64,000 nucleotides of DNA, from NCBI GenBank assembly GCA_045636425.1, contig JAZTXM010000003.1:4903-68902 (forward strand), given 5' to 3'. This DNA comes from Clostridia bacterium (GTDB lineage: Bacteria > Bacillota > Clostridia > UMGS1883). This document shows positions 2,876-19,388 of the stretch, piece by piece. Under the pieces are notes generated by a model. The model ran no database searches. It had not been told where the DNA came from and was given only the letters and a program-made list of their open reading frames with translations. The translations under genes were made by a program, and so were the position numbers. The stretch's first letter is position 1. Each line of letters starts with the position of its first letter.

Positions 2876-4036
2876 ATGAACACATTTGAGAAAGACAAAC
2901 AGTTTGTCGCACCCACATATGGGCGTTTTCCTGTAGAAATTGTCGGTGGAAAGGGTGCTGTTTTAAAGGGTAGCGACGGAAAAGAATATATAGATTTGGG
3001 AAGCGGAATCGCAGTAAACACCTTCGGTTTTCGTGATGATGAATGGGTTAACGCAGTGAAAGCACAGCTTGACTCTTTTGCACACACTTCAAATCTTTAC
3101 TATACCTCCCCCTGTGCTGACCTTGCAAAGATGCTTTGCGAGAAAACTGGAATGAAGAATGTTTTCTATTCAAACTCAGGTGCGGAAGCAAATGAATGTG
3201 CAATCAAAGCCGCTCGCCGCTACGGCTCACTAAATAAGGGCGAGGATTATTATACAATCATTACACTGGAAAAAAGCTTCCACGGCAGAACTCACACAAC
3301 ACTTGCGGCAACAGGTCAGGAAAGCTTTCATAAAGACTTTCTCCCCCTTACCCCCGGTTTTGTGCATACTCCCCCGAATGATACAGAATCTCTTAGAAAA
3401 GCCGTGAAAGATAACAAGTGCTGTGCGATAATGATGGAAATTGTTCAGGGCGAGGGCGGTGTATGTGCCCTTGAAAAGGAATTTATTCTTGAAGCCGAGA
3501 AGCTTTGCCGTGAAAATGACCTTGTACTTATTATAGATGAGGTACAGGCAGGAAACGGCAGAACGGGTAAGCTTTACGCATATATGCACTACGGCATTAC
3601 TCCCGATGTAGTAACCACTGCAAAGGGACTGGGAGGCGGACTTCCCATCGGTGTAACAATGCTCGGAGAAAAGGTAAAGGATATTTTTGCTCCGGGGCTT
3701 AACGGCTCCACTTTTGGAGGAAACCCCGTTTGCTGCAGCGGTGCAATCAGTATTCTCTCAAGACTTACAGATGAGTTTTTGGAGGGAGTAACAGAAAAAG
3801 CTGAAATAATAAGAGAAACCTTAAGCGGAGCCGAAGGAATCGAAGATATTTCGGGACTTGGTCTTATGATAGGTATTAAAACAGTGAAAGAAGCAAAGGA
3901 AGTAGTAAATAAGTGCATCGAAAATGGCGTGCTTGTTCTTACCGCAAAGGATAAGGTAAGGCTTCTTCCCCCGCTTAATATAGATAATAATCTGCTTAGA
4001 AAAGCACTTGAAGTAATTAAGGAGGCATGTAAATAA
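2876..4036 (+). CDS. argD: acetylornithine aminotransferase
   Basis: 386 aa class-III aminotransferase with DEVQAGNGRTG and the PLP lysine in TTAKGLGGG. AAGGAG SD. Confidence 0.9.
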   Translation: MNTFEKDKQFVAPTYGRFPVEIVGGKGAVLKGSDGKEYIDLGSGIAVNTFGFRDDEWVNAVKAQLDSFAHTSNLYYTSPCADLAKMLCEKTGMKNVFYSNSGAEANECAIKAARRYGSLNKGEDYYTIITLEKSFHGRTHTTLAATGQESFHKDFLPLTPGFVHTPPNDTESLRKAVKDNKCCAIMMEIVQGEGGVCALEKEFILEAEKLCRENDLVLIIDEVQAGNGRTGKLYAYMHYGITPDVVTTAKGLGGGLPIGVTMLGEKVKDIFAPGLNGSTFGGNPVCCSGAISILSRLTDEFLEGVTEKAEIIRETLSGAEGIEDISGLGLMIGIKTVKEAKEVVNKCIENGVLVLTAKDKVRLLPPLNIDNNLLRKALEVIKEACK

Positions 4037-4938
4037 TGAAGCATTTATTAAAGCTGGGCGATCTTACAAAGGAAGAGATTGTAGAAATTCTCGACCTTGC
4101 GGATAAGCTTAAATATGAAAAAAGAAACGGAATTGAGCATCACTTGCTCAAGGGAAAGACACTGGGAATGATTTTCCAGAAGTCCTCCACCAGAACAAGA
4201 GTTTCCTTTGAGGTTGGTATGTTTGACCTTGGCGGAAGTGCACTTTTCCTCAGCCCCAGAGATTTGCAGATTGGCAGAGGTGAGGTTGTAGAGGATACTG
4301 CAAGAGTTCTTTCCAGATTCTTAGACGGAATTATGATCCGCACCTTTGAACAAAAAGAGGTTGAAGATTTTGCCTCCTACGGTGATATTCCGATTATTAA
4401 CGGACTTACAGACTACTGCCATCCCTGTCAGGTATTGGCTGACCTTATGACAATCCGTGAAAAGAAAGGAAATCTTGAAGGTCTTAAAATGTGCTTTGTT
4501 GGCGACGGTAATAATATGGCAAACTCCATTATCGTGGGATGCATCAAGATGGGTATGGAGGTTTCCATAGCTTGTCCCAAAGGTTATGAGCCTGACAGCG
4601 ATATTATGAAGTGGGCAAACGAAACAGGAAAGTTTACTTGCACAGAAGATGTAATGGAAGCGGCAAAGGGTGCAGATGCTCTCTATACAGACGTATGGGC
4701 TTCTATGGGACAGGAAGAAGAATTTAACGAAAGAGCAAAGGTATTCAAAAATTACCAGATTAATTCCGAGCTTATGAAGGTTGCAAATGAAGGTGCGATG
4801 GTGCTTCATTGTCTGCCTGCACACCGAGGCGAAGAAATCACGGCGGAGGTAATTGAACAGCATGCCGATGAAATTTTTGAAGAAGCCGAAAACAGACTTC
4901 ACGCACAGAAGGCTGTTATGGTTAAATTAATGGCATAA
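4036..4938 (+). CDS. argF: ornithine carbamoyltransferase
   Basis: 300 aa with the STRTRVSFE, HPCQ, SMG and HCLPAHRGEE motifs. TAATG junction with argD. Confidence 0.92.
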   Translation: MKHLLKLGDLTKEEIVEILDLADKLKYEKRNGIEHHLLKGKTLGMIFQKSSTRTRVSFEVGMFDLGGSALFLSPRDLQIGRGEVVEDTARVLSRFLDGIMIRTFEQKEVEDFASYGDIPIINGLTDYCHPCQVLADLMTIREKKGNLEGLKMCFVGDGNNMANSIIVGCIKMGMEVSIACPKGYEPDSDIMKWANETGKFTCTEDVMEAAKGADALYTDVWASMGQEEEFNERAKVFKNYQINSELMKVANEGAMVLHCLPAHRGEEITAEVIEQHADEIFEEAENRLHAQKAVMVKLMA

Positions 4939-4986: not shown

Positions 4987-6039
4987 ATGAAAGCATATTT
5001 GACTTTGGAAAACGGAAAGGTTTTCTCGGGAGAAGCATTCGGTGCAATATGCGACGAGGTTGGAGAAATAGTATTTTCCACTTCTATGGGCAGTTACATT
5101 GAAGCACTTACAGACCCCTGCTATTACGGACAGATTCTTGTCCAGACATATCCGCTTATCGGTAACTACGGTATGATTTACTCCGATATGGAAAGCAGCA
5201 AGATTCACGCAAAGGGTTACATTGTGCGAGAAATTTGCGATACACCTTCAAACTTCCGCTCGGAGGGACTCTTGGAAGATTTCCTCAAAGAGCAGGGTGT
5301 TATGGGTATTTCGGGAATTGATACACGTGAAATCACAAAAATCATTCGCGAAGAAGGCACTATGACAGCACGCATCTCAACTAAAGAGCCTTCAGGCGAA
5401 AAGCCCCAGATGCCCGACATTAAAAACGCGGTTAAAGAAGTCAGTGCAAAGGAAAAACACACTGTAGGCGATGCAGATGTGAAAATTGCACTTCTCGACC
5501 TGGGAACAACTAAAAGTGCCGTTAAAACACTCGCAAATAAAGGTGCTATGGTAACAGTTCTTCCCTGTGACACAAAAGCGGACGAGTTTCTTTCCTACGA
5601 TGCGATTTATCTTTCCGATGGTCCGGGAAACCCCGAGGACTATAGTGAAATCGTAGAAGTAATAAAAGAAGTATTCGGCAAAAAGCCTATTTTTGCCACG
5701 GGACTTGGTCATCAGCTTCTTGCTATGGCAAACGGTGCAAAAATTCACAAGCTTCCTTATGGTCACCGCGGTGCAAATCAGCCTGTTAAGCAGCTTGAAA
5801 GCGGCAGAGTTTATATCACTGCACAAAACCACAGCTATGCAGTAGTTTCCGATACTCTCCCCTCTTACGCACAGGTAACTTATGAAAACCTTAACGACAA
5901 GAGCTGTGAGGGTATTGAGTACAAAGACAAAAATGCTGTTTCAATTCAATTCCGTCCCATAGAGGGAGACGGTCCTAACGAAACAGACTTCTTATACAGA
6001 AAATTCTTTGAAATGATTGGAGGAAGCAAGAATGCCTAA
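4987..6039 (+). CDS. carA: carbamoyl-phosphate synthase small-subunit homolog lacking the glutaminase catalytic triad
   Basis: 350 aa. The CarA N-domain (LTDPCYYGQILVQTYPLIGNYG) and GATase fold are retained. The nucleophile motif reads FATGLGHQ instead of FGICLGHQ, and HPE reads RPI. Overlaps carB by 8 nt. Confidence 0.85.
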   Translation: MKAYLTLENGKVFSGEAFGAICDEVGEIVFSTSMGSYIEALTDPCYYGQILVQTYPLIGNYGMIYSDMESSKIHAKGYIVREICDTPSNFRSEGLLEDFLKEQGVMGISGIDTREITKIIREEGTMTARISTKEPSGEKPQMPDIKNAVKEVSAKEKHTVGDADVKIALLDLGTTKSAVKTLANKGAMVTVLPCDTKADEFLSYDAIYLSDGPGNPEDYSEIVEVIKEVFGKKPIFATGLGHQLLAMANGAKIHKLPYGHRGANQPVKQLESGRVYITAQNHSYAVVSDTLPSYAQVTYENLNDKSCEGIEYKDKNAVSIQFRPIEGDGPNETDFLYRKFFEMIGGSKNA

Positions 6040-9000
6040 GAATAAAGACATCAAAAAGGTACTGGTAATCGGCTCGGGTCCTATTGTAATCGGGCAGGCT
6101 GCCGAATTTGACTATGCAGGTGCACAGGCTTGCCGAGTACTCCGCGATGAGGGCGTAAATATCGTCCTTGTAAACTCCAACCCCGCTACAATTATGACAG
6201 ATAAGGCTCTTGCAGATGAAATTTATCTTGAACCTCTTACAACAGATACAATCAAGAGAATCATTGAAAAGGAAAAGCCCGACAGTCTTCTTGCATCGCT
6301 TGGCGGACAGACAGGTCTTACCATTGCAATGCAGCTTGATAAGGAAGGCTATCTTGACAAAATGGGCGTTAAGCTTATCGGCACAAATGCCGAAGCTATC
6401 GACCGTGCAGAGGATAGAGAGCTTTTCAAGGAAACGATGCTCAAAATCGGGCAGGGTTGTATCCCCTCCGACATCGCTACAACAGTTGACGAATGTCTTA
6501 GCATTGCAGAAAAAATTGGCTACCCCGTAATTGTACGCCCTGCATTCACCCTTGGCGGTGCAGGTGGCGGCGTTGCGTATGACGCTGATACTCTTGCAAA
6601 GATTGCAAATAATGGTCTTACTCTTTCCCCCATTACTCAGGTGCTTATTGAAAAGTACATCTACGGATGGAAAGAAGTAGAATTTGAAGTTATGCGTGAC
6701 CACGCCGGTAACGCTATTACAATCTGTAGCATGGAAAATGTGGATCCCGTTGGCATCCACACCGGTGACAGTATAGTTGTTGCTCCCGCGGCAACTCTTT
6801 CCGATAAAGAATATTCAATGCTCAGAAAAGCGGCTCTTGATATTATCACAGAGCTTAAGATTGAGGGCGGATGTAACTGTCAGTTTGCACTTAATCCCGA
6901 CAGCTTTGAGTATGCGGTAATCGAGGTTAACCCCAGAGTTTCCCGTTCTTCCGCACTTGCAAGTAAGGCTACGGGTTACCCCATTGCAAAGGTTACCACA
7001 AAGATTGCCCTCGGCTATACGCTTGATGAAATCAAAAATGATGTTACTGGTGTAACATATGCTTGCTTTGAGCCTGCGGTTGACTACATGGTAGTTAAAT
7101 TCCCCAAATGGCCCTTTGACAAATTCGTATATGCCGACAGAAAGCTCGGCACACAGATGAAGGCTACGGGCGAGGTTATGTCTATCGGCAATTCCTTTGA
7201 ATCGGCACTTATGAAGGCGGTAAGAGGTGCAGAGCTTAAGACCGAAACTCTCCGCCATAAGGAAGTTCAAGCTATCGAGGATATTGAAAAGAAGCTTTAT
7301 GACCTTGACGACCTTAGAATTTTCACAGTTTATGAAGCTCTTGTAAGAGGAATTACTGTAGACAGAATCAACGAAATCACAAGAATTGATAAATGGTTCC
7401 TTTCCAAGATTAAAAATATTGTGGACTATGAAAAGAGCATTGTGGGCAATCTTACTCCCGAGCTTTACGAAAAAGGTAAGAAGCTTGGCTTTACCGATAA
7501 GATTCTGGAAGAAATCAGCGGTGAAAAAGTTCCCTGCCATAAAAATTGCGTTTACAAAATGGTTGATACCTGTGGCGGCGAATTTGCAGCTAAAACTCCC
7601 TACTTCTACTCCACTTATGACAATGAGTGCGAAGCAAGGGCCGTTGCTACAAACAACAAAAAGGTAATCGTTCTCGGCTCCGGTCCTATCAGAATCGGTC
7701 AGGGTATCGAATTTGACTACTCCTCCGTTCACTGTGTATGGGCACTTAAGGAAATGGGCTACGAGGTAATTATTATTAATAACAACCCCGAAACCGTTTC
7801 CACCGACTTTGATACAGCGGACAGGCTTTATTTTGAGCCTCTTACTCCCGAAGATGTAATGAACGTAATCGAGGTTGAAAAGCCCGAGGGCGTTGTGGTT
7901 GCATTCGGCGGTCAGACTGCAATCAAGCTGGTTAAATTCCTTGACGAAAGCGGAATTAAAATCTTAGGTACTTCTGCAAAGAGCATTGATATGGCAGAGG
8001 ATCGTGAGCAGTTTGATGCACTCCTTGAAAAGTTCAACATTAAGCGTCCCAGCGGTCTTACCGTTATGACACGCACTGAAGCACTCGAGGCGGCAGAAAA
8101 GCTTGGCTACCCCGTACTTCTGCGTCCCTCATACGTAATCGGCGGTCAGAATATGACGATTGCTTACAAGGAAGAAGACGTAGAACGCTATATGGATATC
8201 ATTCTTTCTCAGAAGATTGAAAACCCTGTACTTGTGGATAAGTATATGATGGGTAAGGAGCTTGAGGTTGACGTAATCAGCGACGGCAAAGACGTTCTTA
8301 TCCCCGGTATTATGGAGCACGTTGAACGTGCAGGTGTACACAGCGGTGACTCTATCGCAGTATATCCTCCCTTTAACGTGACGGATAAGATGCTTGATAA
8401 GATTGTTGACTGCTCAATAAAGCTTGCTCTTTCCCTTAAGACACAGGGACTTATAAATATTCAGTACCTTGTATATGAAAACGAACTGTATGTAATCGAG
8501 GTTAACCCCAGAGCATCAAGAACAGTTCCCTATATCAGTAAGGTAACGGGCATTCCTATGGTAGACCTTGCTACACAGGTTATGCAGGGTACTCCCCTTC
8601 TTGACCTTGGCTACGGCAGCGGTCTTTACAAGATGCCCCCCTACTATGCAGTTAAGGTTCCTGTGTTCTCATTTGAGAAGCTTTCGGGTATCAACTCTAT
8701 CTTAGGACCTGAAATGAAGTCCACAGGTGAAGTTTTGGGTATTGGTAAAACGCTTAACGAGGCACTTTACAAAGGTCTTGTTTCCGCAGGCTTCAATCTT
8801 GAAAGCCGTGGCGGAGTATATATCAGCGTTGACTCAAAGGATAAGTACGACCTTATTGAGCTTGCAAAGAAGCTTTACGATGCAGGTCTTGAAATCTACG
8901 CAGATGAAATGAATGCTCTCATTATAGATTCATTGGGTATCCCCGTGGAAACAGTTGAGGGAGAAAAGATTTATTCACTCCTTGAAAGCGAAAAGATTGG

Positions 9001-10036
9001 TTATATAATTCACACCAATTCAGGCAGACCTAAGGAAATTGAGAAGTTTATAAGACTGCACCGCAGAGCACTTCAGTTAAGCATTGCATGTCTTACATCG
9101 CTTGATACTGCAAATGCACTTGCAGATATTCTTCTCAGCCGATTCAATCAGTATAATACAGAGCTTACGGATATTGCTAAGCTCCGCACAGAAAAGCTGA
9201 ACATTCCCTTTATCAAAATGCAGGGAACCGGCGATGACTATATATTCATCAATAACTTTGATGGAAACATTGCATTCCCCGAAGCACTTGCAATTGTATT
9301 CTCCGACCGCCGCAGAGGTATCGGTGCAGACGGACTTGTTCTTATCGAAAAATCCGATGTGGCAGATGCGAAAATGCGTATATTCAACACTGACGGCAGT
9401 GAGGGCAAAATGGCAGGTAACGCTATCCGTTGCGTAGGTAAATACCTTTGGGATAACGGCTATGTAACACACCGCCATATAGCAATTGAAACTGCAAGCG
9501 GTATAAGAAAGCTTACGCTTCACCTCTTCGACCACAAGGTTACAAGCGTAACCGTCCAGATGGGACAGGCACAGTTTAATCCCGCTCAGATTCCCGTGGA
9601 TATGCCCGGAGATAAAGTAATTAACGAAAAGGTTACAATCGGCGGTAAGAAGTACGATATTACGTGCGTATCTATCGGAAATCCCCACTGTGTTGTTATC
9701 TGCGATAATGTATATAACATTGATGTGGAAACAATCGGTCCGAGGTTTGAAAATGCACCTATATTCCCCGAAAGAATCAATACGGAATTTGTTAAGATTA
9801 TCGACAAGCGTACCATCAGAATGAGAGTATGGGAACGCGGTAACGGTGAAACTCCCGCCTGCGGTACAGGTGCTTGTGCGGCGGCTATTGCGGCAGTTGA
9901 AAACGGCTACTGTGAGAAGGACACCGACATTTCCGTAAGAGTTGAGGGCGGAGAGCTTATCGTACGCTATACAGACGAGGGAGTATTCTTAACCGGTGAT
10001 GCGGAGAAGGTATTTGAGGGAATTTATCAGTATTAA
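6032..10036 (+). CDS. carB: carbamoyl-phosphate synthase large subunit fused in frame to a C-terminal DapF-like (diaminopimelate epimerase fold) domain
   Basis: Start ATG 6032 has GGAGG 9 nt upstream. About 1040 aa of CarB (two ATP-grasp halves plus an MGS-like domain), then a linker. From nt 9197 a DapF-like domain follows (KMQGTGDDYIFIN ... GNPHCVV ... ERGNGETPACGTGACAAA). No stop or SD lies between the two parts. Confidence 0.88.
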   Translation: MPKNKDIKKVLVIGSGPIVIGQAAEFDYAGAQACRVLRDEGVNIVLVNSNPATIMTDKALADEIYLEPLTTDTIKRIIEKEKPDSLLASLGGQTGLTIAMQLDKEGYLDKMGVKLIGTNAEAIDRAEDRELFKETMLKIGQGCIPSDIATTVDECLSIAEKIGYPVIVRPAFTLGGAGGGVAYDADTLAKIANNGLTLSPITQVLIEKYIYGWKEVEFEVMRDHAGNAITICSMENVDPVGIHTGDSIVVAPAATLSDKEYSMLRKAALDIITELKIEGGCNCQFALNPDSFEYAVIEVNPRVSRSSALASKATGYPIAKVTTKIALGYTLDEIKNDVTGVTYACFEPAVDYMVVKFPKWPFDKFVYADRKLGTQMKATGEVMSIGNSFESALMKAVRGAELKTETLRHKEVQAIEDIEKKLYDLDDLRIFTVYEALVRGITVDRINEITRIDKWFLSKIKNIVDYEKSIVGNLTPELYEKGKKLGFTDKILEEISGEKVPCHKNCVYKMVDTCGGEFAAKTPYFYSTYDNECEARAVATNNKKVIVLGSGPIRIGQGIEFDYSSVHCVWALKEMGYEVIIINNNPETVSTDFDTADRLYFEPLTPEDVMNVIEVEKPEGVVVAFGGQTAIKLVKFLDESGIKILGTSAKSIDMAEDREQFDALLEKFNIKRPSGLTVMTRTEALEAAEKLGYPVLLRPSYVIGGQNMTIAYKEEDVERYMDIILSQKIENPVLVDKYMMGKELEVDVISDGKDVLIPGIMEHVERAGVHSGDSIAVYPPFNVTDKMLDKIVDCSIKLALSLKTQGLINIQYLVYENELYVIEVNPRASRTVPYISKVTGIPMVDLATQVMQGTPLLDLGYGSGLYKMPPYYAVKVPVFSFEKLSGINSILGPEMKSTGEVLGIGKTLNEALYKGLVSAGFNLESRGGVYISVDSKDKYDLIELAKKLYDAGLEIYADEMNALIIDSLGIPVETVEGEKIYSLLESEKIGYIIHTNSGRPKEIEKFIRLHRRALQLSIACLTSLDTANALADILLSRFNQYNTELTDIAKLRTEKLNIPFIKMQGTGDDYIFINNFDGNIAFPEALAIVFSDRRRGIGADGLVLIEKSDVADAKMRIFNTDGSEGKMAGNAIRCVGKYLWDNGYVTHRHIAIETASGIRKLTLHLFDHKVTSVTVQMGQAQFNPAQIPVDMPGDKVINEKVTIGGKKYDITCVSIGNPHCVVICDNVYNIDVETIGPRFENAPIFPERINTEFVKIIDKRTIRMRVWERGNGETPACGTGACAAAIAAVENGYCEKDTDISVRVEGGELIVRYTDEGVFLTGDAEKVFEGIYQY

Positions 10037-10040
10037 AAGC

Positions 10041-10268
10041 GGGATGTTAAAAATGCCCAGACCATTCGTTGGCGATTGATTATATTTTGAAAGAGCGTAT
10101 TTCTTTTAAAGATATGCTTATCGGTTGAAATCCGTACAACGGATTTCTGTTTTAGATGCCAACGAATTACGAACAAACTTCACCTCTCGCTGTATACACA
10201 TACAGCTTCGGGTAACCTGCGGCAAGCCGCAGTTCAGTTTGTCCGTTCTGAACATTTTTTCCTATCCC
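10041..10268 (+). repeat. structured interspersed element, copy 2
   Basis: Same arms and 3' domain as copy 1, but a different cassette. Inner helix 10064-10073/10158-10167. Begins 4 nt after the carB stop. Confidence 0.85.
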
Positions 10269-10295
10269 TTTGACGCCTAATTATTAGTTTGAAAA

Positions 10296-10381
10296 TGAAT
10301 ATTGGTGCATAAAATATAAATTTATGCACCAATATTCAAAATTTATGAATTTTTATGCAAAAACGCTTGCATAATTATACA
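10296..10381 (+). promoter_or_regulatory. candidate ArgR operator region (ARG-box-like sites)
   Basis: Two boxes, TGAATTTTTATGCA (10346-10359) and TGCATAATTATACA (10368-10381), are 22 bp apart centre to centre. An 18-bp perfect inverted repeat TGAATATTGGTGCATAAA / TTTATGCACCAATATTCA lies at 10296-10313/10321-10338. Confidence 0.45.
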
Positions 10382-10395
10382 TTTAATGTTATACT
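10367..10395 (+). promoter_or_regulatory. sigma-A type promoter of argG
   Basis: TTGCAT (10367-10372), 17-nt spacer, TGtTATACT extended -10 (10390-10395). The -35 overlaps ARG-box-like site 2. Confidence 0.5.
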
Positions 10396-10437
10396 GTTTT
10401 CATTGAAAGAATGAAAAGAAAAAAGGAGATTTTAAAA

Positions 10438-11658
10438 ATGGATAAGAAGGATATTAAAAAAGTAGTTCTCGCTTACAGCGGAGGACTTGACACATCAATC
10501 ATTATTCCGTGGCTTAAGGAAAACTACAACAACTGTGAGGTTATCGCCGTTGCAGGTAATGTAGGACAGAATGACGAGCTTGAAGGTCTTGAAGAAAAGG
10601 CTATAAAGACAGGGGCTTCCAAGCTTTACGTTCTTGACCTTACAGAGGAATATGTAGATGAATACATCATCCCCACTATGAAAGCAGGTGCAATTTACGA
10701 GGAATATCTTCTCGGAACAAGCCATGCTCGTCCCTGTATTGCAAAGGGTCTTGTAGATATTGCAATCAAGGAAAATGCAGATGCTATCTGCCATGGTTGC
10801 ACAGGTAAGGGTAACGACCAGGTGCGTTTTGAGCTTACAATAAAGCACTTTGCTCCTAATATGCCCATTATTGCCCCCTGGCGTATTTGGGATATTAAAT
10901 CCCGTGAAGAGGAAATTGAATATGCAGAGGCACACAATGTTCCTCTTAAGATTAACCGCGAAACAAACTACTCAAAGGATAAGAACCTCTGGCATCTTTC
11001 TCACGAGGGTCTTGACCTTGAAGATACAGGCAACGAGCCTCAGTACGAAAAGCCGGGCTTCCTTGAAATGGGCGTATCTCCCATCATGGCACCCGATGAG
11101 CCTACATATATCACTCTTGACTTTGAGCAGGGCATTCCTGTAGCATTCAATGACAAGAAGATGAGTGCAAAGGAAATCATTCTTGCCCTTAATGAAGTTG
11201 GCGGAAAGAATGGTATCGGACTTCTCGACATCGTTGAAAATCGTCTTGTAGGTATGAAATGCCGCGGCGTTTACGAAACTCCCGGCGGTGCAATCCTTTA
11301 CAAGGCACACAGCGTTCTTGAATCCATCTGCCTTGACAAGATGACACTTCACGAAAAGCAGAAGCTTTCTATCACATTTGCAGAGCTTGTTTATAACGGT
11401 CAGTGGTTTACTCCTCTCCGTGAGGCTCTCAGTGCATTTGTTGATAAGACTCAGGAAAAGGTTACAGGTAAGGTACGCCTTAAGCTTTACAAGGGTAATA
11501 TGATTAATGCAGGCGTATGGAGCGATTACAGCCTTTATTCAGAAGAAATCGCAACCTTTGGCGAAAGCGATTACAACCAGAAGGATTCCGAAGGCTTCAT
11601 TAACCTTTACGGTCTTCCCATTGCAGTACAGGCTATGGTTGATGCAAAGAATAAATAA
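10438..11658 (+). CDS. argG: argininosuccinate synthase
   Basis: [10 protein letters not shown]-type ATP-PPase motif. Start ATG 10438 has AAGGAG 8 nt upstream. The ORF-track start at 10411 lacks an SD. Confidence 0.92.
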
Positions 11659-11659
11659 C

Positions 11660-11900
11660 GGACGTATTAAAATAGCACTGAACGCATAAAGCATGAAGGC
11701 TCATATCATGGCAATTAGAAAGCGTAGATATTTGAGTTTAATCCCGTTTGTCGGGAAAAAATTCGCTCCACGAATTTTATTGACTTATCTGCTTTATGCT
11801 ACGAACAAACTTCACCTCTCGCTGTATACACATACAGCTTCGGGTAACCCACGGCAAGCCGTGGTTCAGTTTGTCCGTTCCGCACTATTTTACTACATCC
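11660..11900 (+). repeat. structured interspersed element, copy 3 (diverged arms)
   Basis: Arms GGACGTATTAAAATAGCACTGAAC / GTTCCGCACTATTTTACTACATCC still pair. Inner helix 11684-11693/11790-11799. The 3' domain is conserved. Begins 1 nt after the argG stop. Confidence 0.8.
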
Positions 11901-11904
11901 TCAC

Positions 11905-11951
11905 AAAAAAGTATGAAACTGTAGTAAAGAAATTTACTACAGTTTCATACT
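11905..11951 (-). terminator. 19-bp perfect hairpin; intrinsic-terminator-like only when read on the minus strand
   Basis: AGTATGAAACTGTAGTAAA-GAAA-TTTACTACAGTTTCATACT (11910-11951). An A-run lies at 11905-11910 on the + strand, which is a U-run after the stem on the - strand. No T-run follows on the + strand. Confidence 0.4.
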
Positions 11952-11974
11952 TAACAGACAATGGAGGTAAAAAT

Positions 11975-13345
11975 ATGGACAAGATGTGGGCAGGGCGTTT
12001 TTCAAAAGCCCTGGATAAAGAAGCTGATGATTTTAATTCATCCATACATTTTGACTGCAAAATGTACAGGCAGGATATAGAGGGCTCTATTGCCCATGCG
12101 ACTATGCTTGCCGAATGTAACATTATTTCCAAAAGCGACAGTGAAACAATAATTGCAGGACTTAAAGAAATTCTTGCTGACCTTGAGGGCGGAGCACTCG
12201 GCTTTGACTTTGATGCGGAAGATATACATATGTTTGTGGAGGCCGAGCTTACACGCCGTATTGGAGATGTGGGAAAAAGGCTTCATACCGCAAGAAGCCG
12301 TAACGACCAGGTGGCCTTAGATATCCGCCTTTACATGCGTGACGAGGCAAATGAGGTTATTTCCCTTATCCGGAAGCTTCTTGGTGCTATTCTTCTTCAG
12401 GCAGAAGCTAACAAGGAAACAATTCTCCCCGGCTACACGCATCTTCAGCGTGCACAGCCCATTATGTTTGCACATCATCTTTGTGCATATGCAATGATGT
12501 TTATCCGCGATATCGGAAGAATCGAGGACGCACTTAAGAGAATGAACCTCTCCCCCTTAGGCTCATGTGCCCTTGCGGGAACAACCTATGAAACAAACCG
12601 CGAAAGGACGGCAGAGCTTCTTGGCTTTGACGGAATTACCTTAAACAGCATCGACGGCGTTTCCGACCGTGACTTCTGCGTTGAGCTGATGAGTGCATTC
12701 GCACTTGTGATGACGCATCTTTCAAGATTCTCCGAGGAGGTTATTCTCTGGTCATCATGGGAATTCAAATTCGTGGAGCTTGACGATTCCTATACAACAG
12801 GCTCCTCCATTATGCCCCAGAAGAAGAATCCCGATATGGCAGAGCTTGTACGCGGTAAGACGGGCAGAGTATATGGCGATTTGATTGCAATGCTGACAAT
12901 ACTAAAGGGTATTCCCCTGGCATACAACAAGGATATGCAGGAGGATAAGGAAGCAATCTTTGACAGCGTGGAAACAGTTAAAAAGTGCCTCAGCATTTTT
13001 GCTCCCATGATTGCTACCATGTCTGTGCGTGCGGACAAAATGTACGCCGCAGCAGGTGAAGGCTTTATCAATGCCACAGACCTTGCCGACTATCTTGTAA
13101 AGAAAGGGCAGCCCTTCCGCAGTGCGTATAAGACAGTAGGGCAGATTGTGGGAAAGTGCGTCGCGGAAAAGAAAACTCTTGAAACGCTTACCCTCCCCGA
13201 ATATAAGGAATTTGATGAGCTTTTTGAGGAAGATTTATATGCAGAAATCGACCTTAAAAACTGCGTGGAAAAACGTATTTCCGCAGGTGGAACTTCTGTA
13301 GCATCAATTAATACACAGATTGAATATATAAAAAAATTTGTATAA
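11975..13345 (+). CDS. argH: argininosuccinate lyase
   Basis: MDKMWAGRFSK... is a typical ArgH N-terminus. GGAGGT SD at 11963-11968. 456 aa. The ORF-track start at 11693 reads through repeat copy 3. Confidence 0.92.
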   Translation: MDKMWAGRFSKALDKEADDFNSSIHFDCKMYRQDIEGSIAHATMLAECNIISKSDSETIIAGLKEILADLEGGALGFDFDAEDIHMFVEAELTRRIGDVGKRLHTARSRNDQVALDIRLYMRDEANEVISLIRKLLGAILLQAEANKETILPGYTHLQRAQPIMFAHHLCAYAMMFIRDIGRIEDALKRMNLSPLGSCALAGTTYETNRERTAELLGFDGITLNSIDGVSDRDFCVELMSAFALVMTHLSRFSEEVILWSSWEFKFVELDDSYTTGSSIMPQKKNPDMAELVRGKTGRVYGDLIAMLTILKGIPLAYNKDMQEDKEAIFDSVETVKKCLSIFAPMIATMSVRADKMYAAAGEGFINATDLADYLVKKGQPFRSAYKTVGQIVGKCVAEKKTLETLTLPEYKEFDELFEEDLYAEIDLKNCVEKRISAGGTSVASINTQIEYIKKFV

Positions 13346-15580: not shown

Positions 15581-18208
15581 TTATGCGATAATCTCGGAAA
15601 CCTTTGCAAGTGCTTCGGCAATTTTTCCTGCGTCCTTACCGCCGCCCTGTGCACTGTCGGGCTTACCGCCGCCGCTGCCGCCTGCAACAGCTGTGATTTC
15701 CTTAATTATCTTTCCGCAATGTATGCCTGCCTTAACAGCATCCTGACTTGCCATTGCAACAAAGGAAATCTTTCCTTCTGTTTCTGCACCGAATACGCAA
15801 ACGCTCATAGGAGTCTTGTCCTTTATAGCGTCGCCCGTCTTACGGAGAGAATCAACTGTTGCACCGTCAAGCTGAGCTACTACAAGTGTAATATCGCCGA
15901 TTTTCTTAGCGTTTGACATAATGTCGCTTGCCTTTGCATTAGCCATCTGCGCAGCTATTTGTTCAAGCTTCTTCTGCTGTTCGCGGTTTTCGTTTACAAT
16001 AGATTCAGCACGGTGAACAAGCTCACCCTCGGTTGTTTTAAGTGCCATAGCTGTATTTGCAATGATAGCGTTCTTTTCTTCAATATAGCGAAGTACTCCC
16101 TCGCCTGTTACAGCTTCGATTCTTCTTACGCCTGCCGCAACGCCGCCCTCGGACAGAATCTTGCAAAGACCTGCCTCTGCAGTATTCTTAAGATGGCAAC
16201 CGCCGCAAAGCTCGATTGAATATCCACCCATATTTACTACGCGGACAGTATCACCATACTTTTCACCAAAGAGTGCCATTGCACCCTCTGCCTTAGCATC
16301 TGCAATAGACATATTCTTGATTGTAACGGGGTATGCCGCAAGAATTGCCGCATTTACTTTATTTTCAACCTCTTGAAGCTGCTCTTTTGAAACTGCTTCA
16401 AAGTGAGAAAAGTCAAAACGAAGTCTTGATTCGTCAACGTAGCTTCCTGCCTGCTCAATATGGCTGCCCAATACTTCACGAAGGGCTTTTTGCAGAAGAT
16501 GCGTTGTTGAGTGGTTACGTGCTGTAGCCATTCTTTTCTTGGCGTCAATTGTTACATGAACCTTGTCACCCTTATTGGCACTTCCCTCTGTAACGGTTAC
16601 ATGGTGAAGAATCTTTCCGTCGCCGAGCTTCTTTGCATCGGTAACGGTCATCTTAAAGCCTTCGCCGGTAATTTCACCATTATCGCCCATCTGACCGCCG
16701 CTTTCGCCGTATACTACAGTCTTATCAAGAATGATAACTGCGTTTTCGCCATCAGAAACACTTTCGGTAACCTGTCCGTCCTTTACGATAACAGTAATAT
16801 TCGCATCACACTGGGAATTGTCATATCCGATGAATTCTGTTGTGATTTCCTTGCCTAATGTCTGATAAATATCCTCGCTCCATGCCGCTTCATCACCGAC
16901 ATTTCTTCCCTCTCTTGAACGGGTTTTCTGCTCAAGAAGAAGGGCATTGAATGCATCGCGGTCAACGCCGAGACCTTTTTCCTGAAGAATTTCTTCTGTA
17001 AGGTCAATGGGGAAGCCGTAAGTATCATTAAGCGTGAAAGCATCATCACCTGAAAGAATCTTTCCACCTGATTTTTCAAGGTCTTGTATCTTTTCTTCGA
17101 GAATTGAGAGACCGCGGTCGATTGTCTGCGCGAAGCTTTCTTCCTCTCTCTTAATAACTCTCTTTATATAATCCTGCTTTTCTTCAAGCTGGGGATATGC
17201 ACCCTTTGACTCACGGATAACCGTATCGGCAATATTATAAAGGAATGTGCCCTCTACACCGAGAAGTCTGCCGTGACGTGCCGCACGCCTTAAAAGTCTG
17301 CGAAGAACGTAGCCTCTGCCCTCGTTTGAGGGGGAAACGCCGTCGCAAACCATAAAGGTTGTGCTTCTGATGTGGTCAGTGATAACACGCAGTGAAATAT
17401 CTGTCTTTTCGTTTTCGCCGTAATTAACCTTTGCCACCTTGCTGATTTCAAGCATAATGTTGCGGATTGTATCAACCTCAAAAAGGTTATTTACATCCTG
17501 CATGATAACAGCCATTCTTTCAAGACCCATACCTGTATCGATATTGGGATTTGCAAGGCGGTTATATACGCCGTTTTCATCTTTATCAAACTGGGTGAAT
17601 ACAAGATTCCAGAATTCTACGAATCTGTCACACTCACAGCCTACCTTACAATCCGGGCTTCCGCAACCGTATTTTTCACCGCGGTCAAAGTAAAGCTCAC
17701 TGCAGGGACCGCAGGGACCCTGACCGATTTCCCAGAAGTTGTCCTCTTTACCCATCTTAGAAATATGGGAGGGGTCTACTCCTACCTCTTTTGTCCAGAT
17801 GTCGATAGCTTCATCGTCTTCCTCGTAAACTGTGATATACACTCTGTCCTCGGGAAGTCCGAGCTCTTTGGTAACAAACTCCCAAGCCCACGCGGTAGCC
17901 TCGTGCTTGAAATAGTCACCAAAAGAGAAGTTACCCAGCATTTCAAAAAACGTACCGTGACGGGCAGTTATACCAACACGCTCAATGTCGGGTGTACGAA
18001 TACATTTCTGGCAGGTGGTCACTCTCTTACGGGGAGGAACCTCCTTCCCTGTGAAATAGGGCTTAAGCGGTGCCATACCTGCATTTATAAGAAGGAGACT
18101 GTTGTCATTCTGCGGAACGAGCGGAAATGACGGCAGTCTTAAATGTCCCTTACTTTCAAAGAATTTTAAATATCTTTCGCGAATTTCATTGAGTCCTAAT
18201 TTTTCCAT
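15581..18208 (-). CDS. alaS: alanine--tRNA ligase
   Basis: MEKLGLNEIRERYLKFFESKGH... with class-II motifs and the HxxxH/CxxxH editing domain. AAGGAG SD. The ORF-track extension to 18469 crosses a promoter and a terminator. Confidence 0.93.
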   Translation of the reverse strand: MEKLGLNEIRERYLKFFESKGHLRLPSFPLVPQNDNSLLLINAGMAPLKPYFTGKEVPPRKRVTTCQKCIRTPDIERVGITARHGTFFEMLGNFSFGDYFKHEATAWAWEFVTKELGLPEDRVYITVYEEDDEAIDIWTKEVGVDPSHISKMGKEDNFWEIGQGPCGPCSELYFDRGEKYGCGSPDCKVGCECDRFVEFWNLVFTQFDKDENGVYNRLANPNIDTGMGLERMAVIMQDVNNLFEVDTIRNIMLEISKVAKVNYGENEKTDISLRVITDHIRSTTFMVCDGVSPSNEGRGYVLRRLLRRAARHGRLLGVEGTFLYNIADTVIRESKGAYPQLEEKQDYIKRVIKREEESFAQTIDRGLSILEEKIQDLEKSGGKILSGDDAFTLNDTYGFPIDLTEEILQEKGLGVDRDAFNALLLEQKTRSREGRNVGDEAAWSEDIYQTLGKEITTEFIGYDNSQCDANITVIVKDGQVTESVSDGENAVIILDKTVVYGESGGQMGDNGEITGEGFKMTVTDAKKLGDGKILHHVTVTEGSANKGDKVHVTIDAKKRMATARNHSTTHLLQKALREVLGSHIEQAGSYVDESRLRFDFSHFEAVSKEQLQEVENKVNAAILAAYPVTIKNMSIADAKAEGAMALFGEKYGDTVRVVNMGGYSIELCGGCHLKNTAEAGLCKILSEGGVAAGVRRIEAVTGEGVLRYIEEKNAIIANTAMALKTTEGELVHRAESIVNENREQQKKLEQIAAQMANAKASDIMSNAKKIGDITLVVAQLDGATVDSLRKTGDAIKDKTPMSVCVFGAETEGKISFVAMASQDAVKAGIHCGKIIKEITAVAGGSGGGKPDSAQGGGKDAGKIAEALAKVSEIIA

Positions 18209-18233
18209 TGTAAACACTCCTTTACAAAATAAC

Positions 18234-18262
18234 ATTATACCTTTTTTTAGGAATGTTGTCAA
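18234..18262 (-). promoter_or_regulatory. consensus sigma-A promoter of alaS
   Basis: On the minus strand: TTGACA (18262-18257), 17-nt spacer, TATAAT (18239-18234). Confidence 0.7.
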
Positions 18263-18353
18263 CCGAAAAAGACTATTTTTTAGGGTTTTAAACGGCAAAA
18301 AAGGACACCCTCGCAATGTTTTTGCCAAGGCGTCTCTTTTGCCGAAGTATTTA

Positions 18354-19388
18354 TCAGAAACATTTTCCGTCTTTGCAGTCGTGCGTGTTTCCTCCCCGAT
18401 AGCAAAGTTCGTTGGGACACTGCCCTTTTTCAAAGAAGCCTTCCAGATTTGAAATTGTGGTGTCGGCAATATTTGTAAGTGCTTCCTTTGTCAAAAACGC
18501 CTGATGTGACGTCACGATGACATTGGGCATGGATATAAGCCGTGCCAAGGTATCATCCTCCACGATATGCCCCGAATAATCCTCGAAGAAAAGCTCTGAC
18601 TCCTCCTCGTACACATCGAGGCACGCCGCCCCGACCTGTCTTGACTTGATGCCGTTTAAAAGGGCTTCCGCATCCACCAGCGCACCGCGGGAGGTATTTA
18701 TAATCACTACACCCCTTTTGCATTTTTCAATAGAATTTTCGTCAATGATGTGGTAGGTTTCATCATTAAGCGGACAATGCAGGGAAATTATATCACTGCT
18801 GCTGAAAAGCTCATCGGTGGAAACATATCTGATGTTTTCCCCGTCGGCAAGTCCCTCCGCGGGAAACTTGTCATAGGCAAGAACTTTCATTCCAAATCCG
18901 CGGCAAATGTCAATAAACACTCTGCCGATTTTTCCTGTTCCTATTATTCCCACGGTTTTTCCGTGAAGGTCAAATCCTGTCATTCCCGAAAGGCTGAAAT
19001 TAAAGTCCTTCGTACGGATATACGCCTTATGAATACGCCTGATTGATGTAAGAAGCATTGCCATGGCATGCTCCGCCACCGCATAGGGTGAGTATGCAGG
19101 CACCCTGAGAACATGAATTTTACCGAAAGCATACTTCATATCTACGTTATTAAATCCTGCACAGCGAAGTGCAACCACACCCACGCCCAATTCACACAGG
19201 CGGTCGATTACCTCTTTATTAACAGAATCGTTTACAAATACGCATACTGCATCAAAGCCCTTTGCAAGACCTACAGTATCCTCATTCAGCTTGGTTTCAA
19301 AATATTTTATGGTAATGTCCTTCCCTGCCGAAGCACTTTCAAAAGACTCCTTATCATAGGGTTTTGTGTCAAAAAACGCTATTCTCAT
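18354..19388 (-). CDS. ldhA: D-isomer-specific 2-hydroxyacid dehydrogenase (D-lactate dehydrogenase-like)
   Basis: GIIGTGKIGR NAD-binding motif with an LdhA-like layout. Has an extra Cys-rich C-terminal tail. Confidence 0.75.
   Translation of the reverse strand: MRIAFFDTKPYDKESFESASAGKDITIKYFETKLNEDTVGLAKGFDAVCVFVNDSVNKEVIDRLCELGVGVVALRCAGFNNVDMKYAFGKIHVLRVPAYSPYAVAEHAMAMLLTSIRRIHKAYIRTKDFNFSLSGMTGFDLHGKTVGIIGTGKIGRVFIDICRGFGMKVLAYDKFPAEGLADGENIRYVSTDELFSSSDIISLHCPLNDETYHIIDENSIEKCKRGVVIINTSRGALVDAEALLNGIKSRQVGAACLDVYEEESELFFEDYSGHIVEDDTLARLISMPNVIVTSHQAFLTKEALTNIADTTISNLEGFFEKGQCPNELCYRGGNTHDCKDGKCF

Follow-up and report, generated by a model that had tools for sequence, protein, structure and literature searches.

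Carbamoyl-phosphate synthase (CPSase) is a textbook allosteric enzyme whose regulation is regarded as understood: its effectors uridine monophosphate (UMP), inosine monophosphate (IMP), and ornithine work through the C-terminal domain. Two-base epimerization of diaminopimelate (DAP) by the epimerase DapF requires both thiols of the enzyme, and the one-Cys members of the wider superfamily are dehydratases, not racemases. The catalytic pair of DapF is Cys73 and Cys217 (PMC6061791). In CarB, the large subunit of CPSase, Thr977 and Lys993 are crucial for the inhibition and binding of UMP, Ser948 is crucial for nucleotide sensitivity, and Thr1042 binds ornithine (PMC6245113). Escherichia coli DapF also activates RppH via a protein-protein contact (6D13; PMC6061791, PMC4227774). 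This report concerns a gene in which the two proteins are joined, carB::dapF*, a single open reading frame (ORF) on a stretch of 64,000 nucleotides (nt) from a Clostridia bacterium (GenBank assembly GCA_045636425.1, contig JAZTXM010000003.1, positions 4,903 to 68,902 of the forward strand). The whole stretch is called the window here, and positions are counted from its first letter. The DapF-like module of the fused protein (DapF*) lacks the first catalytic cysteine and probably has a new role, such as effector sensing.

The fused CarB-DapF reading frame

The frame runs on the + strand from an ATG at 6032 to a stop codon at 10034-10036 (6032..10036; alternative TTG start at 6017) and encodes 1334 amino acids (aa) with no internal stop. 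Residues 1-1046 (6032..9169, +) make up a CarB with two ATP-grasp halves, an oligomerization domain, and an allosteric domain. NF003671 matches aa 1-1034 at 1454 bits (cut-off 599) and extends to position 1046 of its 1058 profile positions; TIGR01369 reaches 1425 bits (cut-off 1027); PF02786 and PF25596 each match twice, and PF02787 matches once. Residues 1058-1334 (9203..10033, +) form the DapF-like module, to which TIGR00652 aligns at 276-281 bits (cut-off 114.65) over aa 1059-1332 and profile positions 2-269 of 270, and which matches the Bacillus anthracis DapF 2otn with E = 3e-70. The initial annotation had read this frame as an in-frame fusion of CarB to a DapF-fold domain; the stop-free frame and the complete CarB and DapF profile matches bear this out, and all the peptide strings quoted there are found in the ORF.

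The two parts are joined by a linker, DIAKLRTEKLN (aa 1047-1057; 9170..9202, +). Its length had been given as about 18 aa; it is about 11 aa, since CarBs of the order that lack the fusion terminate at '...NTELT', where the linker starts, and 'FNQYNTELT' is CarB's own C-terminal tail. The linker Ile and Arg are invariant among 10 diverse fused proteins, and in an AlphaFold (AF2) model the linker is a short helix with a predicted local distance difference test score (pLDDT) of 73-83.

The fusion is widespread. A search with residues 980-1334 finds at least 120 protein clusters of 1334-1349 aa that span the entire query region at 57-99% identity; some of them hold thousands of members (one has more than 3000 sequences), on contigs of up to 2 Mb. 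Among GTDB species genomes there are at least 600 matching stretches, the best 80 of which all extend from the CarB tail through the linker and the module and come from uncultured gut or rumen Clostridia (Oscillospiraceae, Acutalibacteraceae, Ruminococcaceae, Eubacterium sp., CAG:341, and Oscillibacter). Of 300 genomes sampled evenly across the class, at least 26, belonging to at least 12 families, carry DapF inside a frame of about 1350 aa. The database search for CarB proteins of fused size that the initial annotation suggested thus returns hundreds of entries from gut and rumen Clostridia, and the arrangement is not rare: the fused proteins are annotated solely as “carbamoyl-phosphate synthase large subunit.” One protein cluster (P0082) was considered as a source of split versions and rejected; it mixes 1343-aa fused proteins with 284-aa DapFs, and the latter are ordinary stand-alone proteins with both cysteines.

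A single ORF could mislead if an assembly or sequencing error hid a stop codon, or if an internal start or processing gave separate CarB and DapF-like proteins. This explanation is barely credible. The junction is uninterrupted in at least 16 genomes of the genus and in more than 100 other species, and because the same junction peptides occur in many independent assemblies, the fusion is not an assembly error. A promoter-like sequence inside carB (TTGAAA-16-TATAAT, 8982-9009) would favor two products, but promoter-like sites occur at chance level (6 found versus 4.5 expected), and the internal promoter was rejected as one good-looking site among that number. No in-frame ATG, GTG, or TTG lies between 9140 and the ATG at 9218, and no Shine-Dalgarno sequence precedes the latter, which encodes the invariant Met of the conserved K-M strand; the absence of a plausible internal start and the placement of this ATG within the strand had both been noted previously. 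The linker itself is under purifying selection, with a ratio of nonsynonymous to synonymous substitution rates (dN/dS) of 0.05, the same constraint as in the remainder of the protein. The fusion is confirmed as real, encoded by a single ORF, and widely conserved.

The DapF-like module and the supply of meso-DAP

In a gap-free alignment to solved DapFs (2otn, 9mro, 8qzy, and 3ejx), the canonical M-C-G-N-G-x-R-C reads M-A-G-N-A-I-R-C in the window. Residues 1128-1131, A-G-N-A in place of C-G-N-G (9413..9424, +), put Ala1128 (codon GCA, 9413-9415) at the position of the first catalytic cysteine, Cys73 of E. coli and Haemophilus influenzae, and a second Ala at that of Gly76. The second catalytic cysteine (E. 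coli C217, motif ACG(T/S)G) is retained as Cys1277 (codon TGC, 9860..9862, +). The E. coli numbers given below for the DAP-binding residues were assigned from motifs. Because Cys73 has become Ala, two-base epimerization should no longer be possible for the module. A shift of the catalytic cysteine from position 73 to position 76 (MAGNCIRC) was considered and ruled out; position 76 changes 22 times among Ser, Cys, Ala, Asn, and Gly, and it is Ala in the window.

The remainder of the pocket is preserved. Throughout the clade of Cys-less copies to which the window belongs, the DAP-binding residues N1119, N1130, N1217, N1250, E1268, and R1269 (N64, N75, N157, N190, E208, and R209) are 99-100% conserved, the Cys217 equivalent is kept in 99% of members, and the His159 and Glu208 equivalents are kept in 100%; all the family-invariant pocket residues checked (N64, G74, N75, GNPH, N190, E208, R209, C217, and the GTG equivalents) are retained. 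Few positions have switched: Ala stands for Cys at 1128, Phe for Tyr at 1072, Val for Ile at 1311, and Leu for Met at 1320, and an Asn has newly appeared (Asn1271 in the window, ERG-N-GET, 9842..9844, +). This Asn typifies the Cys-less clade (83 of 90 Cys-less copies), and two-Cys copies mostly have Ser, Ala, or Thr there. Asp1068 (9233..9235, +), which replaces DapF Asn11 and turns GxGNDY into GTGDDY, is specific to the window's genus. The AF2 model of aa 931-1334 has a pLDDT of 89 and a predicted template-modeling score (pTM) of 0.75, with the module above pLDDT 90; the modeled module has the standard two-lobed DapF fold, superposes on DapF 9mro with a template-modeling (TM) score of 0.92 and a root-mean-square deviation of 1.5 Å, and is 41% identical to B. 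anthracis 2OTN. The “full DapF-fold domain” of the initial annotation is therefore full-length as a fold, but its catalytic set is incomplete, the first catalytic Cys being Ala1128.

By its substitution rates, the module is under strong purifying selection, like CarB. Between the window and its two nearest species, dN/dS is 0.057-0.063 for the module and 0.045-0.053 for CarB. The ratio of module to CarB protein distance is 1.35 in Cys-less pairs versus 1.31-1.34 in pairs that keep the cysteine, and no truncated module copies are seen apart from those at contig ends. A decaying relic is ruled out by the dN/dS of about 0.06, the unchanged rate relative to CarB, and the confinement of truncations to contig ends.

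With close to an even chance in our estimation, DapF* may be a non-epimerase, a ligand-binding module derived from DapF that most likely binds a DAP isomer and is coupled via the linker to the CPSase allosteric domain. The same residues also suit its main competitor, in which DapF* would be a one-thiol (one-base) enzyme with new chemistry, using Cys1277 with the His and Glu on a DAP-like or a ureido or carbamoyl amino acid. The reaction could be an elimination, a hydrolysis, a proton exchange, or a stereospecific protonation, and the fusion would couple this step to the supply of carbamoyl phosphate. The near-complete retention of Cys217, His159, and Glu208 equivalents in the Cys-less clade is consistent with such an enzyme, as is a dN/dS of about 0.06; the Asn fixed at ERG-N-GET and the Tyr-to-Phe change at aa 1072 look like retuning, not decay; and among the fold neighbors of the module are the O-ureidoserine racemase 7vdy and two one-Cys hydroxyproline dehydratases, 6r76 and 4k7g. 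However, no candidate substrate or pathway partner is visible among the downstream genes, which vary by lineage; the distal DAP-recognition residues are unchanged and the pocket is not visibly reshaped; and no replacement base is fixed at position 76, which changes freely next to the lost Cys. A one-thiol enzyme is unlikely, if far from negligible.

The source assembly (1.58 Mb, 19 contigs, 96% complete) encodes a full meso-DAP dehydrogenase (Ddh; 478 bits, cut-off 181) and LysA, and because Ddh is present, the module would not be needed for meso-DAP. The fused ORF is the sole CarB and the sole DapF homologue of this genome; the check for a stand-alone dapF proposed in the initial annotation finds none. 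Within the same genome, contig C4 (53027-54666) carries an aminotransferase gene and, after it, a 131-aa fragment whose match to Ddh is confined to the first 115 positions (137 bits); the full ddh lies on contig C9. In sister genomes the same aminotransferase adjoins an intact ddh, so the fragment could be either a duplicate that was truncated or the result of an assembly break.

Elsewhere the bookkeeping is similar. Ddh or a separate two-Cys DapF is found in 57 of 60 distinct genomes with a Cys-less fusion: a separate two-Cys DapF accompanies the fusion in 27 of the 30 genomes that lack Ddh and in 6 of the 30 that have it. This correlation should be read as coverage (57/60) and not as a strong statistic; the raw Fisher test of Ddh against extra DapF (p = 6e-8) overstates the independence of the genomes. 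Within the window's genus, both Ddh-less genomes (G041 and G055) add a canonical two-Cys dapF, with an adjacent aminotransferase gene, to the Cys-less fusion; genera g2 and g3 lack Ddh and have a canonical stand-alone DapF. DapF is absent from 21 of 58 genomes of the order. The LL-DAP aminotransferase profile TIGR03540, taken as a marker of the DapL pathway and cross-hit by other aminotransferases, exceeds its cut-off in no genome. By gene content, Ddh, and not DapF*, is the predicted source of meso-DAP in the window's cell.

It is highly improbable that DapF* is still the cell's DAP epimerase, with water or another residue acting for Cys73, and that the fusion is a plain two-enzyme “Rosetta stone.” A TIGR00652 score far above cut-off and the lack of any other DapF homologue in the genome would fit such an enzyme, and three genomes (G047, G068, and G085) have a Cys-less fusion with neither Ddh nor another DapF. 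Against it stand the alanines at both positions 73 and 76, the need of a two-base mechanism for two thiols, the presence of Ddh and LysA, and the upkeep of a canonical two-Cys DapF in nearly all Ddh-less genomes with a Cys-less fusion, including the two of the same genus. The fused copies that keep both cysteines are another matter: G064 and G066 carry such a copy and no other route to meso-DAP, and their modules may be true, working epimerases.

The order of these changes can be read from a maximum-likelihood tree of 121 DapF modules. The first catalytic Cys position is Ala or Gly in all 120 closest clusters. Among 104 fused copies read from genomes, Cys73 is lost in 90, with the motifs AGNS (43), AGNA (19), AGNC (16), AGNN (6), and others (6), and kept in 14 as CGNA or CGNG; both cysteines are present in every stand-alone DapF with a readable motif, 17 of them from the order and about 24 being second copies from outside it. 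On the tree, the fused state needs two changes and the loss of Cys73 also needs two: one loss defines a clade of 88 that includes the window (Shimodaira-Hasegawa approximate likelihood-ratio support of 98), and the other is small, comprising G007 and G008, which read SGTA and AGTS. Fused two-Cys copies form a basal grade of the fused family. A dapF directly behind a plain carB, unfused, occurs in G035 and G004, within the sister group of all fused copies. The tree thus points to a single origin of the CarB-DapF fusion, and its topology implies that the carB-dapF gene pair fused first and that the thiol was removed later in the window's lineage.

In G035 (C11:21892-27054) and G004 (C102:176-5321; loci L014, L015, L178, and L180), a plain carB (1064 or 1067 aa), a two-Cys dapF, and an aminotransferase gene follow each other on one strand, an arrangement that looks like the unfused precursor. 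An aminotransferase gene directly adjoins every stand-alone dapF in the order. Separately, several Oscillospirales loci (L164, L165, L167, L168, and L171) encode a divergent stand-alone second DapF (MCGNGARC ... GNPG(L/I)PHAV ... ERGVEDFT(L/Y)ACGTG) that scores about 200-215 bits and has both cysteines.

The CarB allosteric domain and the proposed role of the module

The allosteric (MGS-like) domain of the fused CarB (8822..9169, +, by alignment to E. coli CarB 917-1051) has an eroded nucleotide-effector site and scores 20.7 bits with Pfam MGS, under the cut-off of 24.1. Relative to E. coli, T974 is replaced with Asp958 and T977 with Asn961 (in 'YADEMNA', nt 8897-8917), K993 is deleted, and N1015 is replaced with His; S948, K954, and the ornithine-site T1042 are retained. 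Seven nucleotide-site residues were scored across related proteins (S948, K954, T974, G976, T977, K993, and N1015); those beyond the residues named in the opening paragraph belong to the site in the IMP-bound structure. The number intact falls from 6.9 in ten plain CarBs of the same order (three of them from the same genus), through 5.9 in fused proteins with both cysteines, to about 3.2 in Cys-less fused proteins (about 3.8 without badly aligned rows) and 2 in the window. The Thr1042 equivalent is invariant in every group. The nucleotide-effector residues define UMP-regulated CPSases, not CarB as such.

Three genomes of the same order (G012, G017, and G018) hold a plain CarB (1061 aa, nucleotide site intact) together with a Cys-less fused CarB. 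This pairing suggests that a pyrimidine-type and an arginine-type CPSase have separated, and that the window's genome has retained only the fused one.

The genes and residues described above can be assembled into a mechanism. A dapF gene would once have stood directly behind carB, and loss of the carB stop codon would have fused the two; early fused forms would have had both catalytic cysteines, and the thiol of the L-center (Cys73) would have given way to Ala in the large derived clade. The product would be one polypeptide, CarB-linker-DapF*, serving as the sole CPSase large subunit for both arginine and pyrimidine synthesis. DapF* would act as a clamshell that closes on a DAP-like diamino-dicarboxylate; its ligand state would be passed through the short conserved linker to the adjacent CarB allosteric domain, where the input of the module would supplement the eroded UMP/IMP input or take its place. 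Taken to its full extent, the proposal is that a former DAP epimerase has become a new allosteric input domain of CPSase in a large clade of gut and rumen Clostridia, one that senses a DAP isomer, supplants the UMP/IMP site, and sets the output of carbamoyl phosphate for arginine and pyrimidines. In this complete form we regard the proposal as rather less likely than not.

Several observations weigh against a sensing role. Cys217 (99%), His159, and Glu208 are retained beyond the apparent need of a pure binder, a sign that some chemistry may persist. The eroded UMP site could simply mark a lineage of arginine-type CPSases and be unrelated to DapF*, and both trends, the loss of the cysteine and the erosion of the CarB site, rest on essentially one evolutionary transition. 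The contact between module and allosteric domain is a presumed one, the AF2 model carrying no interdomain error estimate. A phylogenetically independent test of Ddh loss against extra DapF, underpowered at 7 pairs, finds 3.5 going in the same direction versus 0.1 in the opposite one (p of about 0.25). Finally, the 3 of 60 genomes with neither Ddh nor a second DapF are metagenome-assembled genomes of limited completeness.

A module that touches its partner without sensing anything is a further alternative. DapF* could be purely structural, for example a DapF-type dimer interface that stabilizes the CarAB oligomer, with neither sensing nor catalysis. DapF proteins dimerize and can act through protein contacts (PMC6061791), and a short conserved linker and strong conservation despite the loss of a catalytic residue would suit a scaffold. 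A scaffold would not, however, require invariant pocket residues and Cys217 across 88 lineages, and we consider this role improbable.

In abundant, widespread gut bacteria, a conserved, catalytically altered DapF fold sits on the regulatory end of CPSase, next to a classical nucleotide site that is decaying. Should the module sense DAP or a related metabolite, the supply of cell-wall and lysine precursors would be linked to arginine and pyrimidine synthesis, with a DAP isomer reporting the supply of aspartate-family and cell-wall precursors. If true, CPSase would have a class of regulation not known before, with a pseudoenzyme as its basis, and the module would clearly exemplify the recruitment of an enzyme for sensing. 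In genome-scale metabolic models, the fused ORF should not be counted as DapF activity, and public annotation hides the fusion under the plain CarB name.

Locus context and comparison with known systems

The fused gene lies in an arginine operon with the order argJ, argB, argD, argF, carA, carB::dapF*, argG, argH, all on the + strand. Upstream, argJ (426-1667), argB (1957-2811), argD (2876-4036), and argF (4036-4938) each match their NCBIfam equivalog above cut-off, and carA, the small (glutaminase) subunit of CPSase (4987..6039; NF009475, 401 bits), overlaps the start of carB. Downstream are argG (10411-11658) and argH (11693-13345), both assigned by NCBIfam. At all related loci that extend far enough, carA stands 5' of the fused gene, and the argG/argH neighborhood downstream is confined to the window's genus. 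Across fused loci there is no conserved downstream partner gene; genes 3' of the fusion vary by lineage, and only the upstream carA is constant. The genome has pyrB alongside argF, and since it has one CarB only, the fused CPSase must also supply pyrimidine synthesis; judged by this gene content, the fused protein is expected to synthesize carbamoyl phosphate.

The 374-nt spacer between the fused-gene stop and argG (10037-10410) contains two terminator-like hairpins, at 10127-10147 and 10217-10232, the former a 21-nt hairpin that occurs once in the window. The longest ORFs of argH (11693-13345, 550 aa) and alaS (15581-18469, 962 aa) begin about 95 codons before the match to their hidden Markov model, so their true starts are probably further downstream.

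The initial annotation held that such an arrangement is not known from characterized CPSases, and this agrees with the published record as far as it was searched: literature searches turned up no characterized CPSase with CarB-DapF architecture and no publication that describes a fusion of CarB to DapF or a DapF without the cysteine. New here are the bookkeeping of Ddh and second DapFs, the unfused carB-dapF arrangement as a precursor, the tests of rate and dN/dS, the case against position 76 as a substitute residue, and the graded erosion of the CarB nucleotide site.

Several known systems invite comparison. The fused protein resembles E. coli CarB (1BXR/1JDB/1CE8) in its full-length domain set, its adjacent carA, its place in an arginine operon, and its ornithine-site Thr1042. 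It differs in about 290 extra C-terminal residues and in two residues of UMP control, Thr977, which is Asn in the window, and Lys993, which is deleted; plain CarBs of the order keep both (PMC6245113). The module, in turn, shares with DapF (EC 5.1.1.7; TIGR00652/PF01678; 2OTN, the cyanobacterial 9MRO, and H. influenzae 1GQZ) the two-lobed fold, all pocket residues, both distal and proximal, and the catalytic Cys at the second position, and departs from it in the Ala at the first catalytic Cys, the fusion to CarB, and the genus-specific Asp for Asn11. Also close are the two-Cys fused CarB-DapF proteins (such as those of loci L016, L034, L036, L066, L098, and L119), which have the same architecture, linker motif, and upstream carA; unlike the window's protein, they read CGNG or CGNA and ERG(S/T)GET, and their CarB nucleotide site is nearly intact (5.9 of 7).

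Two further comparisons bear on function. The activation of RppH by E. coli DapF provides a likeness in that a DapF fold modulates another enzyme by contact and not by its own product. There, however, DapF is separate and catalytically active and its partner is an RNA pyrophosphohydrolase, whereas the module in the window is covalently fused and lacks one catalytic Cys. The trans-3-hydroxy-L-proline dehydratases 6R76 and 4K7G and the H. influenzae C73S mutant 2Q9H have the same fold with one of the paired catalytic residues replaced. The one-Cys dehydratases are only about 15% identical to the module and have a pocket reshaped for proline derivatives, whereas the window has an unchanged DAP pocket and Ala, not Thr or Ser, at the replaced position.

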